A program made the position numbers and the translations under genes. Positions 13,944 through 18,018 of a stretch of DNA of 64,000 nt are shown piece by piece; within the stretch, counting starts at the first letter, position 1; every line of letters begins with the position of its first letter. Below the pieces are notes generated by a model. The model searched no databases. It saw only the letters and a list, made by a program, of their open reading frames with translations, and was not told the origin of the DNA. This DNA comes from Lysobacterales bacterium (GTDB lineage: Bacteria > Pseudomonadota > Gammaproteobacteria > Xanthomonadales > Rhodanobacteraceae), in assembly GCA_016707485.1 (NCBI GenBank), contig JADJHN010000003.1:363770-427769 (forward strand). Direction: 5' to 3'.

Positions 13944-14636
13944 ATGACCACCCTCTTCATCTCCGATCTCCATCTCGATCCGTCGCGACCGGAAATCATC
14001 GCGACCTTCCGGCGCTTCATCGCCGAGGAAGCGGTCAACGCCGACGCGCTCTATATCCTCGGCGATCTGTTCGAAGCGTGGATCGGCGATGATGCCGACG
14101 ACGAAACAGGCAAGCAGTTCGTGGACGCCATGCGCCCACTGCGCGAGGCACGCAAGCCCTGCTTCTACATGCACGGCAACAGGGATTTCCTGCTTGGCGA
14201 ACGCTTTGCAAGGGAATCGGGCATGACCCTGCTGCCCGACCTCTCCGTCATCAACCTGTACGGCACACCCACCCTGCTCATGCATGGCGACAGCCTGTGC
14301 ACCGACGATGCAGCCTATCAGGCGTTTCGCAAACAGGTTCGCTCAGCCGAATGGCAGAGACAGTTTCTTTCGCAAGGCATCGAAAAGCGCCAGGCCTTCG
14401 CCACGCAAGCGCGCAACGAAAGCCAGCGCCACACCAGGGACAGCAGCAAAGCGGCCATCATGGACGTCAACCAGCAAGCGGTCGAAGCCGCGATGAAATC
14501 AGCCAAAGTCCGGCGTCTGATCCATGGGCACACGCACCGACCAGCGACCCATTCGTTTGACTTGAACAACGCTCCCGCCACTCGAATCGTGCTGGGGGAT
14601 TGGTATGAGCAAGAAAGCGTAATGCGAATCCCCTAG
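13944..14636 (+). CDS. lpxH: UDP-2,3-diacylglucosamine diphosphatase
   Basis: ISDLHL, YILGDLFEAWIGDD, MHGNRDFL, HGDSLCTDD, IHGHTHRP, VLGDW. Confidence 0.96.
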   Translation: MTTLFISDLHLDPSRPEIIATFRRFIAEEAVNADALYILGDLFEAWIGDDADDETGKQFVDAMRPLREARKPCFYMHGNRDFLLGERFARESGMTLLPDLSVINLYGTPTLLMHGDSLCTDDAAYQAFRKQVRSAEWQRQFLSQGIEKRQAFATQARNESQRHTRDSSKAAIMDVNQQAVEAAMKSAKVRRLIHGHTHRPATHSFDLNNAPATRIVLGDWYEQESVMRIP

Positions 14637-14699
14637 CGAGCCGGAATTCACCAACTCGCCAAAGAGGCATGCACGCGTTGTGTGCTGGACCCGCGAAGG

Positions 14700-16109
14700 C
14701 TACTTGGCAACTATTTTTTGCGGGCTTGTGAACTGCTGCTTGCGACCCTTGTTGTAAACGATGTTGATGTAATACCAATACGTATTACCCGATTCCGCAG
14801 ACGAATCTCTCCACTGGTAGATCGACCCCGCTTCGGGATCTCCATCCAGCCGCTCCAGAATCTTGTCGTTAACCCTCGAATATGGCCCAGTTTCTGCCAC
14901 GGAACGATAGATCTCGTAACCGTAAATATCGTACTCATTGGTCACCTGCCATTTGAGCAGCGGACCAGTTCCATCTGGCGTCGACATTGTCGCTGGAGCT
15001 TTGGCTTTCTCGGTCGTCTTCGTAACGGATGACTGCAAAACCGAAGAAATTGACTTAGATTCCTCCTGTGCGGCCTTGAAGTCTTCTTCGAGACTCCGGA
15101 TTTGGGTATTCTTGCCAATTCCGATCGCACCAAAACGAACAACCAGATTCTGTTTGTAAGACGGCAACTCAATTTCAAGCGTTCCGCCCGTAGTACCGAG
15201 CAAATTCATCGGCGGATAGGCGACCTTGACATTCTTGCACGACTCGTTCTTCGGAACGCAATCATTAACCGAGGTGAACACCTTCATTCTGCTTTTTGCG
15301 ACAACTTTGCCAATATTCAGTGGTTTGCCAGTTACATCGTTCAGAACAAGCATCATCTCGGCCGCCTGCCCCTCTCTCAAGAGACCAAAGTCGAGTGGAT
15401 CGGAACTCGGTACGACTGAACCGCGCGCCTGCCCCTTCAAGCGAAACGCAACAATAGGCTGCAGCGGGTTGTCCGTTCGGATTAGCAGCTTCTCGTCGAA
15501 GCTCGACCAAGGCGCATCAGCCCTACTGTGCAACTCAAGTGCCCCGCCATTTCGGACAATTTTCACGTCGAAATAGGCGCTCGGCTTTTCGACGCCAACC
15601 AGGTGCAGCGTAGCCCCGGGCCTGACATCGATCGGAATCACTTTCTCAATTGGCTGGGCAAGCTTGATGGTGTTGAAATCGATGCCCAGGCCGTCGGGGG
15701 AAACCAGCCAGTCTGCAAACCCCCGCACGACGAACCCATCAATTGGGCCAGGCTGGCCTTTCACGAACACGTCGAAATAGTGGGCAACGCGGCCAACTTC
15801 CTCTGTCAACGAAAAATCAAGTTCGGCCACAAATGACTCGCCTGCATTTACCTGCGATGGCGTAAATCCGATCGTTACCTTTTCTGTCCCACGTGGCACG
15901 ATCCTCTCAATCAACATCGAAGTACCGGTAAGGTTTCGTGCCACTACCTGTGCGTGCACCTTAGCAAACGGATGAGTTTGGCCAATTTCAGTGCCGGTAA
16001 ATTCGAACTTGCCAGTTGAATGTGCCTGAGTTGGAACAAGCGTGGCTGCTTGGCCGGCAGGAAACGCCAAAAGGAGTACCACTATGAGGAGAAAATTGGT
16101 GGGTTGCAT
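14700..16109 (-). CDS. Secreted protein: tandem DUF1573/PapD-like Ig domains plus a C-terminal FN3-like beta-sandwich that lacks a clear first strand
   Basis: Signal MQPTNFLLIVVLLLAFPAGQA; repeated LDFG...L.I..V and IRTDNP..P..L.G motifs; C-terminus LLKWQVTNEYDIYGYEIYRS...YQWRDSSAESGNTYWYYI. Family names are from recall, not a search. Confidence 0.7.
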   Translation of the reverse strand: MQPTNFLLIVVLLLAFPAGQAATLVPTQAHSTGKFEFTGTEIGQTHPFAKVHAQVVARNLTGTSMLIERIVPRGTEKVTIGFTPSQVNAGESFVAELDFSLTEEVGRVAHYFDVFVKGQPGPIDGFVVRGFADWLVSPDGLGIDFNTIKLAQPIEKVIPIDVRPGATLHLVGVEKPSAYFDVKIVRNGGALELHSRADAPWSSFDEKLLIRTDNPLQPIVAFRLKGQARGSVVPSSDPLDFGLLREGQAAEMMLVLNDVTGKPLNIGKVVAKSRMKVFTSVNDCVPKNESCKNVKVAYPPMNLLGTTGGTLEIELPSYKQNLVVRFGAIGIGKNTQIRSLEEDFKAAQEESKSISSVLQSSVTKTTEKAKAPATMSTPDGTGPLLKWQVTNEYDIYGYEIYRSVAETGPYSRVNDKILERLDGDPEAGSIYQWRDSSAESGNTYWYYINIVYNKGRKQQFTSPQKIVAK

Positions 16110-16165
16110 ATGAAAAAGCCCACGTGACAAGCACGTGGGCTCTAGTTCCTCAATCAGACGATCAA

Positions 16166-16693
16166 TTATTCGACAGAGAAATTCTGCAGAGCGACTGGCA
16201 GACGGGGTACAGCGATCGTGACCGGGCCGCATTGTCCGACAGTGAAGGATGTCACCGCCAAGTAGTATTGGCCAGCAGCAAGTCCTTGCACCGAAATTGT
16301 TTCACTACCGCCAGCCGGATTGCTATCTGCCTCGACTGGACATGGTGCTGCTCCCGAGCACGCACCCTGCATCAGAGCAGCATACATGTCATAAGTAGCC
16401 GAAGTAGTAGAAATCACGAAATTCTGTTCCGCTGCGGTAGCGCCGCCAATTGCTCCCGGACCCAATGTCACAGACCAAATGGCGTCTGTTGCCGAGCTTG
16501 TTCCCGCAGCACTGCACATGACAGCCAACTGATTGGTGACACCGCAAGTGTCGAAATTAGTAACCGCAGTTGTCAAACTCTGCGGTCCGGCCAACGAGAT
16601 TGCACCTGCACTAGCTGTGCATACCTGTGCAAATGCGGATCCAGTTGCAAGGCATCCAACCATCGCAAGCGAACATACCAAATAATTCTTCAT
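16166..16693 (-). CDS. Small secreted Cys-rich PPC-like protein ending in LPVALQNFSVE
   Basis: GGAG RBS; signal MKNYLVCSLAMVGCLATGSAFA; six Cys in the mature chain; GLAAGQYYLAV; terminal PVxLxxF motif. Confidence 0.8.
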   Translation of the reverse strand: MKNYLVCSLAMVGCLATGSAFAQVCTASAGAISLAGPQSLTTAVTNFDTCGVTNQLAVMCSAAGTSSATDAIWSVTLGPGAIGGATAAEQNFVISTTSATYDMYAALMQGACSGAAPCPVEADSNPAGGSETISVQGLAAGQYYLAVTSFTVGQCGPVTIAVPRLPVALQNFSVE

Positions 16694-16741
16694 AAAGTCA
16701 CTCCAATGAAATTTAAAAGCAAACAAGTTATCAGTTAGTTA

Positions 16742-17494
16742 TTAGTGACCAATGAAAGTCTGGCGGCGCGAATCGAACTGGTCGAAATAGACATAGCTGG
16801 TATTGGTGAAATTCTGGCGGTAGAAGGTATTCGCGGTCGAAAAACCGAGTGCAACCTGGTCAACACCGGTCCAACCAGTATTTGCCAAGTTGGTGAACGT
16901 GCCAGTCGGGGCACCTTCAGTTGTTGACGCAGACGCGTTGGTAACCCAGTACTTCATCGTTGCCGCCGCGCCCGTAACCAAATCGATTTCAACGCGATTT
17001 GCGCCCGCCTGATTCGGAAGTGGAATATCAAGTGTTTGGTACTGACTTCCCTGATTGGTATCACCAACGAACATACGCAAGATTGCCGCTGATCCATTAC
17101 CAGTCAACAGCGCAAAGACCATTCGGTTGTTGCCACCGGCGGGAGCCGTCGCACCAAGAACAGAAAACGCGATTACGTTTCGATTCGCTTGAGTCAAACC
17201 AATGCCCGATGCGTCAATAATGAATTGAGCACGATAACGGGTCTCATTCGCCGGAGTCTGATCGAGTACAAAAGCCTTTGAGCCAGTCGAACCGTTCTGG
17301 TTCAGCGCAACTCGCAGCCTGCAAGCTGTGGAGTCATAACCACCTGTCACGCTGGTTGCCGTGCCTTGCAGCGTCGAAACCAAGCTCCAAGGCGGGGAAA
17401 GGCTGGCCGGGCACTGCGCCATTGCGGCACCGGCGGCACCGAAGCCCACAAAACCGAGAACTGCCAGTGACAGTGTTTTCATTTTGCTGTTCAT
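16742..17494 (-). CDS. Secreted Ser/Thr/Gly/Asn-rich ConA/jelly-roll-like protein ending YFDQFDSRRQTFIGH
   Basis: GGAGAG RBS; signal MNSKMKTLSLAVLGFVGFGAAGAAMA; motifs VLDQTPANETRYRAQFIID, RVEIDL, VDQVALG. Confidence 0.8.
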   Translation of the reverse strand: MNSKMKTLSLAVLGFVGFGAAGAAMAQCPASLSPPWSLVSTLQGTATSVTGGYDSTACRLRVALNQNGSTGSKAFVLDQTPANETRYRAQFIIDASGIGLTQANRNVIAFSVLGATAPAGGNNRMVFALLTGNGSAAILRMFVGDTNQGSQYQTLDIPLPNQAGANRVEIDLVTGAAATMKYWVTNASASTTEGAPTGTFTNLANTGWTGVDQVALGFSTANTFYRQNFTNTSYVYFDQFDSRRQTFIGH

Positions 17495-17583
17495 TAAAAC
17501 TCTCCAGGATTGTCCGGGCGGGGCGGGTCCCCTGTCCCCTTTGCGCATTGCAGAATGGTCTTGCCGATGCCTGAACCTGTCGA

Positions 17584-17613
17584 AGCATAAAGAGTAAGGT
17601 CTTTTGCCGTCAA
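17584..17613 (-). promoter_or_regulatory. Near-consensus sigma70 promoter for the 17494-14700 operon
   Basis: Minus strand TTGACG-N18-TATGCT, about 90 nt upstream of the ATG at 17494. Confidence 0.6.
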
Positions 17614-18018
17614 CAAGTTCCGCGCAGAAGTTTGACCGACTTGTCAGAACCGAGGGTGGCCATGACGTTGCTGATCGGGCCGGCATTTCTGAATCGCTAC
17701 CGGTTTCCGAGCCCCAGGCTTTCCACGTCCACGCCGGATGAGACGCAGCGCGGGACTGGATCCGGACACCTGCCACGATTGTGGCTGATCCGCCACGCAC
17801 GGCCGCACGTCCAGTTGAGGCCGCGATCATGATGATCCGGCCCTCAGCGGCCGCAGGCCCTGGAGGCAGCAAATGCATGGATCGTTGTCCCTTGGCGGGA
17901 TTCGTTGCATTAAATGGGGCTGGTTGGGCTTGCCGGCCGGGCTGGAAGCTTGCTGCGTGATTGACATCGATGCGCGTCGCTGCCGAGAATCGCGCCCCCT
18001 TTGAGGCCATTGCCGCCC

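Follow-up and report, generated by a model that had tools for sequence, protein, structure and literature searches.

Why should a small secreted protein end in what appears to be the first beta-strand of a domain, when the remaining strands of that domain conclude the protein encoded by the next gene? The question is raised by a 64,000 nt stretch of DNA from a Lysobacterales bacterium (GenBank assembly GCA_016707485.1, contig JADJHN010000003.1, positions 363,770 to 427,769 of the forward strand), the whole of which is referred to here as the window. In it, a 175 aa protein ('the small protein') terminates in the 11-residue tail LPVALQNFSVE, and the 469 aa protein encoded immediately downstream ('the big protein') terminates in a fibronectin type III-like (FN3-like) domain that lacks a conserved strand A. 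On the grounds of homology, it is very probable that this tail and this domain are the two halves of one FN3-like domain, of a kind referred to here as LPVEL-type. The elements concerned are given below with the evidence for each (ORF, open reading frame; AF2, AlphaFold2; HMM, hidden Markov model).

16166..16693, minus strand: the small protein, secreted and 175 aa long; its signal peptide is followed by a PPC/CBM-like beta-sandwich and the C-terminal tag (ORF, AF2, homologues)
16169..16201, minus strand: the tag LPVALQNFSVE, residues 165-175, with the stop codon at 16166-16168 directly after it (sequence, family conservation)
14700..16109, minus strand: the big protein, secreted and 469 aa long; after the signal peptide come three Ig-like domains of DUF1573/ASH type, then a helical linker and, at the C-terminus, an FN3-like domain (ORF, AF2)
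14976..14996, minus strand: PATMSTP, residues 372-378 of the big protein, an apparently vestigial, non-conserved occupant of the strand-A position (AF2, family comparison)
14703..14978, minus strand: FN3-like domain without strand A, P378-K469 of the big protein (family conservation, HMM)

An earlier note, made from the sequence alone, had proposed that one domain is divided between these two genes. Both pieces were found at the positions it gave, on the minus strand: the small protein ends in VPRLPVALQNFSVE and the big protein in KAPATMSTPDGTGPLLKWQVTNEYDIYGYEIYRSVAETGPYSRVNDKILERLDGDPEAGSIYQWRDSSAESGNTYWYYINIVYNKGRKQQFTSPQKIVAK, its C-terminal region including KAPATMSTPDGTGPLLKWQV and closing with TYWYYINIVYNKGRKQQFTSPQKIVAK. 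The end of the big gene quoted in that note is present in the sequence, although the quotation stopped 15 residues early. The division itself is upheld by homology, by exact register and by a spacing of 13 residues between the Phe of the tail and the Trp of strand B, the same as in domains where both parts are contiguous.

The earlier note had described the two pieces as contiguous in Bacteroidota T9SS cargo and similar proteins, and contiguous domains of this kind do exist. A scan of metagenomic sequence with the pattern LPVELxxF-x12-W-x4-E-x5-[FY]x[LIVF]x[RK] retrieved at least 120 stretches encoding an LPVEL-type domain within a single polypeptide, mostly followed by a YPNP segment like that of type IX secretion system (T9SS) C-terminal domains (CTDs). 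As the matches continue with features lying outside the search pattern, such as YSFxD...YYRLKQxDxDG, they are genuine domains. Among the matches listed, 165-210 residues run from the motif to the stop in 108 of 118 complete cases, with a median LPVEL-to-stop distance of 186 aa (loci L107-L186, metagenome contigs), and a [YFVL]PNP motif, which we take to mark a segment typical of T9SS CTDs, follows the domain in 77 of 129. No Pfam or NCBIfam model matched the LPVEL-type domain, which is apparently a widespread, unannotated 'pre-CTD' module of T9SS-type cargo.

An HMM was built from 125 of the contiguous domains, the strand-A columns having been selected with a tag-like pattern. The native domain of the window matches it only over positions 18-89 (17.7 bits, conditional E=1.7e-7), whereas a chimera of the tail with the sequence from P378 onward aligns without a gap from position 2 and scores 32.4 bits; when the tail was shuffled 300 times the score was 18.4±1.0 bits, with a maximum of 25.9, and no shuffle reached the chimera. 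The same holds for 36 pairs of small and big proteins, amongst which the tail is nearly invariant: native domains begin at HMM position 16-21 and chimeras at 2-3, and the mean gain is 8.7 bits with a protein's own tail as opposed to 0.4 with shuffled ones. All 41 ORFs of the big family in the loci align to the HMM only from position 16-21, and no other ORF there matches it.

The independent evidence for the fit is the occurrence of contiguous domains at exactly the same spacing, together with the register of a second profile. This was derived from P0064, a metagenomic protein of 895 aa that is the top relative of the big-protein domain and, with nine tandem contiguous repeats, the closest complete relative seen. 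Each of its repeats starts xPTVxLExF or xPAxxxLxxF, with the Phe 13 residues ahead of the Trp; joining FSVE to PDGTGPLLKW gives a spacing that is also 13. The P0064-derived profile places the tail in the same register (43.7 versus 41.4 bits), with one of 200 shuffles scoring as high. P0064 also has in common with the big-protein domain a YWY motif and an [IV]K-DG--R-L ending, with a V-x-L-E-x-F strand A in every repeat.

The domain at the end of the big protein is the most conserved part of its family, and has the motifs PxGxGPLLKW (strand B) ... YGYEIYR ... YQWRD ... TYWYYI ... PQKIVAK-COOH. Compared with the LPVEL type, the strand B to G motifs xLxW, E at W+5, [FY]x[LIV]xR, YxFxD and GxYYY are all present; an LPVxLxxF strand in cis, 13 residues before the strand-B Trp, is absent, and the protein stops at the domain (...VAK) with no T9SS-type CTD after it. 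The AF2 model of the big protein (predicted local distance difference test, pLDDT, 86.2) comprises three Ig-like sandwiches, two helices (340-349 and 354-361, with pLDDT below 50 over 351-367) and a confident seven-strand domain at 371-469, the strand order of which is consistent with FN3. A search of the domain against Pfam gave no match at E<=10, and neither Pfam nor NCBIfam matched the tag-plus-domain chimera; the best match in a PDB sequence search was the marginal 3mpc, an 'Fn3-like protein' (E=0.03). For the whole protein, Pfam yielded only a sub-threshold DUF1573 match, Foldseek only generic ASH/Ig arrays (HYDIN/ASH-type), and NCBIfam nothing; NCBIfam gave nothing for the small protein either. 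A profile of the C-terminal domain recovered 12,739 relatives among 1.84 billion representatives; those with many repeats form classical FN3 arrays, in which Leu occupies position -13 and Ala position -11 relative to the Trp of strand B, and the divergent members of the big family are almost all metagenomic sequences.

What stands in place of strand A is variable. In 91 representatives of the big family the residues P(-9), G(-7), G(-5) and P(-4) precede LL[KR]W, and the sequence upstream of strand B is rich in Pro, Ala and Glu and unconserved (e.g. DPPPPGTGPLLKW), with PPPPG or PPAG in most of the 91. A remnant of the form P-[AVLI]-x-[ML]-x-x-P occurs only in a Dokdonella-like subset that includes the window, by our own reading 11 of the 36 pairs. 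In the AF2 model strand B is formed by residues 384-389, and the sole secondary structure ahead of it in the domain is a two-residue bridge at 373-374. Both the bridge and the lack of conservation agree with the suggestion in the earlier note that PATMSTP could be a vestigial self-strand, and on the model it is best regarded as such rather than as an absent strand. One part of what that note had named as counting against its reading, a PATMSTP lying as strand A in a confident monomer model, is thus half borne out: AF2 does place the segment confidently, at a pLDDT of about 90, with a bridge two residues long.

The big-family C-terminus is almost invariant, PQK[IV]VAK-COOH (window 14700-14708, minus strand), with Q464, A468 and K469 unchanged in 21 sequences; given a parallel pairing of strands A' and G, it could adjoin the tag at its acidic end. 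Stand-alone versions of the strand-less domain were sought and rejected, the short proteins proving to be contig-end fragments or frameshift-split big genes. Big genes broken into two or more ORFs at the linker were seen at L022 1530-3148 (minus strand), L227 5099-6417 and L228 4995-6372, and are probably the result of indel errors in long-read assemblies; they give rise to spurious 'stand-alone' domain proteins of 104-170 aa in protein databases. P0113, a 123 aa protein on a 1.4-kb contig, has a signal-peptide-like start followed directly by DPPGQGPLLKW and is possibly a genuine stand-alone strand-less domain.

The other half of the putative domain is the best conserved part of the small-protein family. 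All 34 homologues are 164-176 aa long, and all 24 that were aligned (51-100% identity) end LPVxLQxFSVE, one having D as the last residue; P163, L165, P166, V167, F172 and V174 are invariant in them. In divergent loci, where the remainder of the protein can barely be aligned, the tail is retained as [LF]PVxLxxF[ST][VI][EDNS] followed by the stop. The AF2 model of the small protein (pLDDT 81.6) is a PPC/CBM-like sandwich with its last strand at 157-161, and residues 162-175 are coil outside this fold, the last five having a pLDDT of 58. The assignment of the fold is approximate: the Pfam PPC match (PF04151) is sub-threshold (E=0.002, 19.4 bits against a cut-off of 25.9), and the best Foldseek matches are to C-CPE, PPC and CBM6 folds, all weak (E=6.5e-3 at best; E=0.04 for the PPC structure 5sv5). 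The stop position is conserved in all homologues, so a frameshift or pseudogene was rejected as the origin of the tail. Simple fission of a gene by a stop codon was also rejected, since some 370 residues of the next protein separate the tail from its complement.

The tail is not confined to this family, and it is very likely that it constitutes a modular C-terminal tag. It terminates many different secreted proteins of sludge and soil bacteria: a DNA-pattern scan for LPVxLQxF[ST][VI][ED] plus stop in one genome per GTDB species found 97 matching stretches, against about nine expected by chance on our own estimate, which assumes uniform composition (37 bits, 1.2e12 positions). By one count about 88 of the 97 are true C-termini of ORFs of at least 100 aa, and by another 84 are exact ones, many of these ORFs having a signal-peptide-like N-terminus. 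The genomes belong to Dokdonella, Tahibacter, Rudaea and other Lysobacterales, and to Holophagales, Thermoanaerobaculia and other Acidobacteriota; several carry more than one tagged gene. Culturable carriers among them are Tahibacter aquaticus DSM 21667, Dokdonella immobilis and D. ginsengisoli. With the tail removed, the 84 ORFs fall into at least 23 groups unrelated by BLAST, 44 of the ORFs belonging to the small-protein family and 40 to others, the domains of which include P_proprotein, PPC+P_proprotein+MAM, LTD and beta-propeller+TIG. A relaxed motif was terminal in 104 ORFs of the fetched loci and internal in none, a count partly biased by the use of a stop codon in picking the loci. The last residue is E or D, with N or S in a few instances. 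The tag is covered by neither Pfam nor NCBIfam, and literature searches turned up no account of the motif.

A single big gene can be accompanied by extra tagged paralogues, four in L008 and one in L004. Those of L008 (7433-9854, minus strand) are four tagged copies of the small protein on the strand opposite the big gene, with shortened tags (TPVSLQGFSID, VPVTLQSFSVE); in L093 (3571-5129, minus strand) three tagged small-protein paralogues form a tandem array with the variant end F-W-V-[ED].

The pairing of the two genes is also conserved. The earlier note had suggested looking for synteny in related genomes, and across all the fetched loci there are 36 distinct pairs in which the small gene lies immediately ahead of the big gene in the same orientation. 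Both are preceded by a third gene that encodes a secreted protein, and the order third-small-big is preserved even in loci where the big protein is merely 24-36% identical to that of the window. The closest named relatives are Dokdonella, a small protein identical to that of the window is encoded in a Lysobacterales metagenome-assembled genome (locus L073), and the sequence is common in activated-sludge metagenomes. The remaining features of the locus are as follows.

16742..17479, minus strand: third secreted protein, 245 aa, upstream in the same operon (ORF, synteny)
16113..16140, minus strand: terminator-like hairpin with a 9-bp GC-rich stem, a 5-nt loop and a T5 run (sequence, RNA fold, RNA contig ends)
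15105..16022, minus strand: three Ig-like beta-sandwich domains of the big protein, approximately residues 30-335 (AF2, Foldseek matches to HYDIN/ASH-type Ig arrays)
15027..15092, minus strand: two-helix linker of the big protein, residues 340-361, then a low-confidence segment to 367 (AF2)

The third gene was syntenic in every locus examined; its product had no match in Pfam, NCBIfam or a PDB sequence search and ends in YFDQFDSRRQTFIGH. This C-terminal motif, FDxFDSRRxTFIG[HN] or in broader form FDxFDSRRxTxIG[HNWQ], shows strong conservation wherever the locus is syntenic. The window has a G+C content of about 63%, and the block at 14-18 kb, in which the three minus-strand genes lie, one of only 54-55%; each of the three products (245, 175 and 469 aa) has a signal peptide. 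This coincidence of the low-G+C block (window 14000-18000) with the trio stands beside the finding that the trio occupies the same chromosomal position in many Lysobacterales, flanked by a GT2-DUF2304-GT4 cluster on one side and lpxH-ppiase-ppx on the other, so that it is old and no recent insertion. Read from an ATG at 16232, the big gene's frame stays open and gives a 510 aa ORF (additional part 16110-16232, minus strand) that overlaps the end of the small gene; as homologues begin at the ATG at 16109, the longer version is probably not used.

The hairpin between the small and big genes has a predicted RNA fold of -23.4 kcal/mol (z=-2.45), and was not listed by a consensus terminator scan. 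In three independent metatranscriptome runs the RNA contigs stop at 16148, 8 nt short of it, with depth falling several-fold into the big gene, and one contig spans the third and small genes, which are thus co-transcribed.

A mechanism can be proposed that would account for the exact complementarity of the two proteins. Both would be exported by Sec, after which LPVxLQxF[ST][VI][ED]-COOH would serve as a docking tag, namely the first strand (A/A') detached from an LPVEL-type FN3-like domain. The C-terminal domain of the Ig-repeat protein, in which no strand A is conserved, would supply the rest, strands B to G. The tail, lying free at the end of the small protein (peptide PRLPVALQNFSVE), would insert beside strand B (LLKWQV) and strand G (QKIV), completing the sandwich by donor-strand complementation and displacing the weak self-segment PATMSTP where it is present. 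Other tagged proteins of the same genome would dock into the receptor domain likewise, making the big protein a common receptor, adaptor or chaperone for tagged cargo. The earlier picture, in which the small protein plugs in trans into the tip of an Ig-repeat stalk, covers too little, given that at least 23 protein families carry the tail as a modular tag. The large excess of small-gene over big-gene transcripts also speaks against that picture. The physical binding, its geometry and its biological purpose are all what we infer from these comparisons, and binding of the tag to the big-protein domain in trans has, in our estimation, slightly less than an even chance of being correct.

Several observations weigh against such docking. 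Part of the gain in HMM score arises by construction, because the strand-A columns were chosen with a tag-like pattern, and scanning for natural proteins that join the tag strand to a GxGPLLxW domain of the big type gave no matches. Loci L014, L015 and L092 have a small gene with no adjoining big gene, and about 40 tagged genes of other families, including all those of the Acidobacteriota, have no big-type domain within 8-kb blocks. The confident placement of APATMST by AF2, with its bridge at 373-374, means that the big-protein domain may be self-sufficient, closing on itself. Finally, word depth in four metatranscriptomes is about 6-12 over the third and small genes, and the big gene is covered by scattered fragments at 0-3.6, contig depth being a crude measure of expression. 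With so much less RNA from the big gene, the bulk of the small protein would stay unbound if the complex were 1:1. On the best-supported reading, that of a split FN3-like domain, the big protein is likely to act as receptor or adaptor, perhaps sub-stoichiometrically or transiently.

Several of these points can be read in favour of a different explanation, the main rival, namely that the tail is a sorting, secretion or quality-control signal for other machinery, such as an outer-membrane exporter or a periplasmic protease or chaperone, with its likeness to strand A reflecting origin only and the big-protein domain folding by itself. The distribution of the tag over at least 23 cargo-like families resembles that of known sorting signals, and the tagged genes with no big-type domain nearby, the confident monomer with its short self-bridge and the low transcription of the big gene would all be expected. 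Against this, the candidate machinery ought to recur beside tagged genes, and no non-tagged gene family was found recurring beside tagged genes of different families; the tag has neither the transmembrane helix nor the basic cluster of known sortase- and exosortase-type signals; and its acidic last residue is unlike outer-membrane protein (OMP) beta-signals, the C-terminal aromatic of which is absent, or typical PDZ ligands. This explanation also leaves the exact complement encoded next door in 36 pairs without a reason, and we judge it unlikely.

Less probable again, to the point of being distinctly improbable, is that the tag assembles tagged proteins with each other or with the third protein, for instance with the strand entering the PPC-like sandwich of a neighbour or the third protein itself; the receptor would then not be the big protein. 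Such an assembly would suit the co-transcription and high RNA level of the third and small genes, their continued association in L014 and L092, which lack the big gene, and the tandem tagged paralogues of L008 and L093. Yet the tag occurs on unrelated folds, so that a fold-specific homopolymer mechanism cannot be general; a third-like neighbour is absent beside most tagged genes from other families; and the small protein is modelled by AF2 as a complete sandwich with no sign of an incomplete fold. A tail without function, left over from an FN3-like domain that was truncated, or one that is simply each carrier's last structural strand, would explain why its sequence equals strand A of a domain contiguous in other phyla, but either is highly improbable given that the tail is near-invariant whilst the rest of the protein drops to 29% identity (a figure inflated by how the sequences were found), that the same end residue recurs in at least 23 families and two phyla, and that AF2 leaves it out of the small protein's fold.

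Docking of the tag into the big-protein domain, if it occurs, would mean that an Ig-like domain has been split in nature and serves generally to dock many cargos, and would amount to a new class of C-terminal signal, 11 residues long, that requires no membrane anchor and no processing enzyme. It would explain what a widespread hypothetical-protein family, with 90 or more clusters at 50% identity, is for, hint at the job of the LPVEL-type domain before the T9SS CTD in Bacteroidota, and provide a small natural peptide/domain pair for protein engineering. Even should the binding fail, an unannotated, lineage-restricted C-terminal motif on at least 23 families calls for explanation.

Amongst known systems, the LPVEL-type domain that precedes the T9SS CTD in Bacteroidota-like cargo is the nearest in sequence. 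It shares the LPVxLxxF strand A, the Phe-to-Trp spacing of 13, the Glu at W+5, the aromatic-x-hydrophobic-x-Arg at W+11 to W+15 and the Y-x-[FW]-x-D ... G-x-Y-[YW]-Y motifs. It differs in being contained in one polypeptide and followed by a segment of about 80 aa with YPNP, whereas here strand A and strands B to G end separate proteins and there is no CTD; only 11 residues follow the PPC-like fold of the small protein, so this has no Ig-like T9SS CTD of about 70-100 aa either.

In mechanism, the proposal is closest to donor-strand complementation and exchange, as in chaperone-usher pili, the type V pili of Bacteroidia, TasA fibres, and the threads and bundling pili of archaea. The likeness lies in an Ig-like fold encoded without one edge strand, with the matching strand on another polypeptide. 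Those systems build homopolymeric fibres or employ a dedicated strand-giving chaperone, whereas here one receptor domain would, judging from sequence, serve many unrelated monomeric cargos. SpyTag/SpyCatcher, an engineered split of CnaB2 joined by a covalent isopeptide bond, is similar in that an Ig-like domain is restored in trans by a peptide forming a terminal beta-strand; the present system is natural and, if it binds, presumably non-covalent.

In distribution, the tag recalls LPXTG, PEP-CTERM, GlyGly-CTERM, MYXO-CTERM and the T9SS CTD, each a short conserved C-terminal element found on many unrelated secreted proteins per genome and restricted in lineage. These sorting signals are 30-80 residues long; the tag has 11 and lacks both a transmembrane helix and a basic tail, and nothing resembling a sortase was identified as its partner. 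Signals of the sortase and exosortase type combine a transmembrane helix with a basic cluster (bioRxiv 10.1101/2023.06.07.544157; PMC11980579). The tagged proteins end at the last residue of the tag, the tripartite layout of motif, helix and basic cluster being absent, and have no NCBIfam match to such a signal; because there is no transmembrane segment and no CTD, and the last residue is acidic, the tag appears to lie outside every known sorting-signal family. It is probably a natural split-domain docking tag, a new variant of both donor-strand complementation and C-terminal tagging. More tentatively than the binding itself, the Lysobacterales, and perhaps the Acidobacteriota, may possess a natural, non-covalent 'strand-tag/catcher' system in which dozens of unrelated secreted proteins share a dedicated Ig-repeat catcher, and this would differ in principle both from sortase-type signals and from fibre-forming donor-strand exchange.

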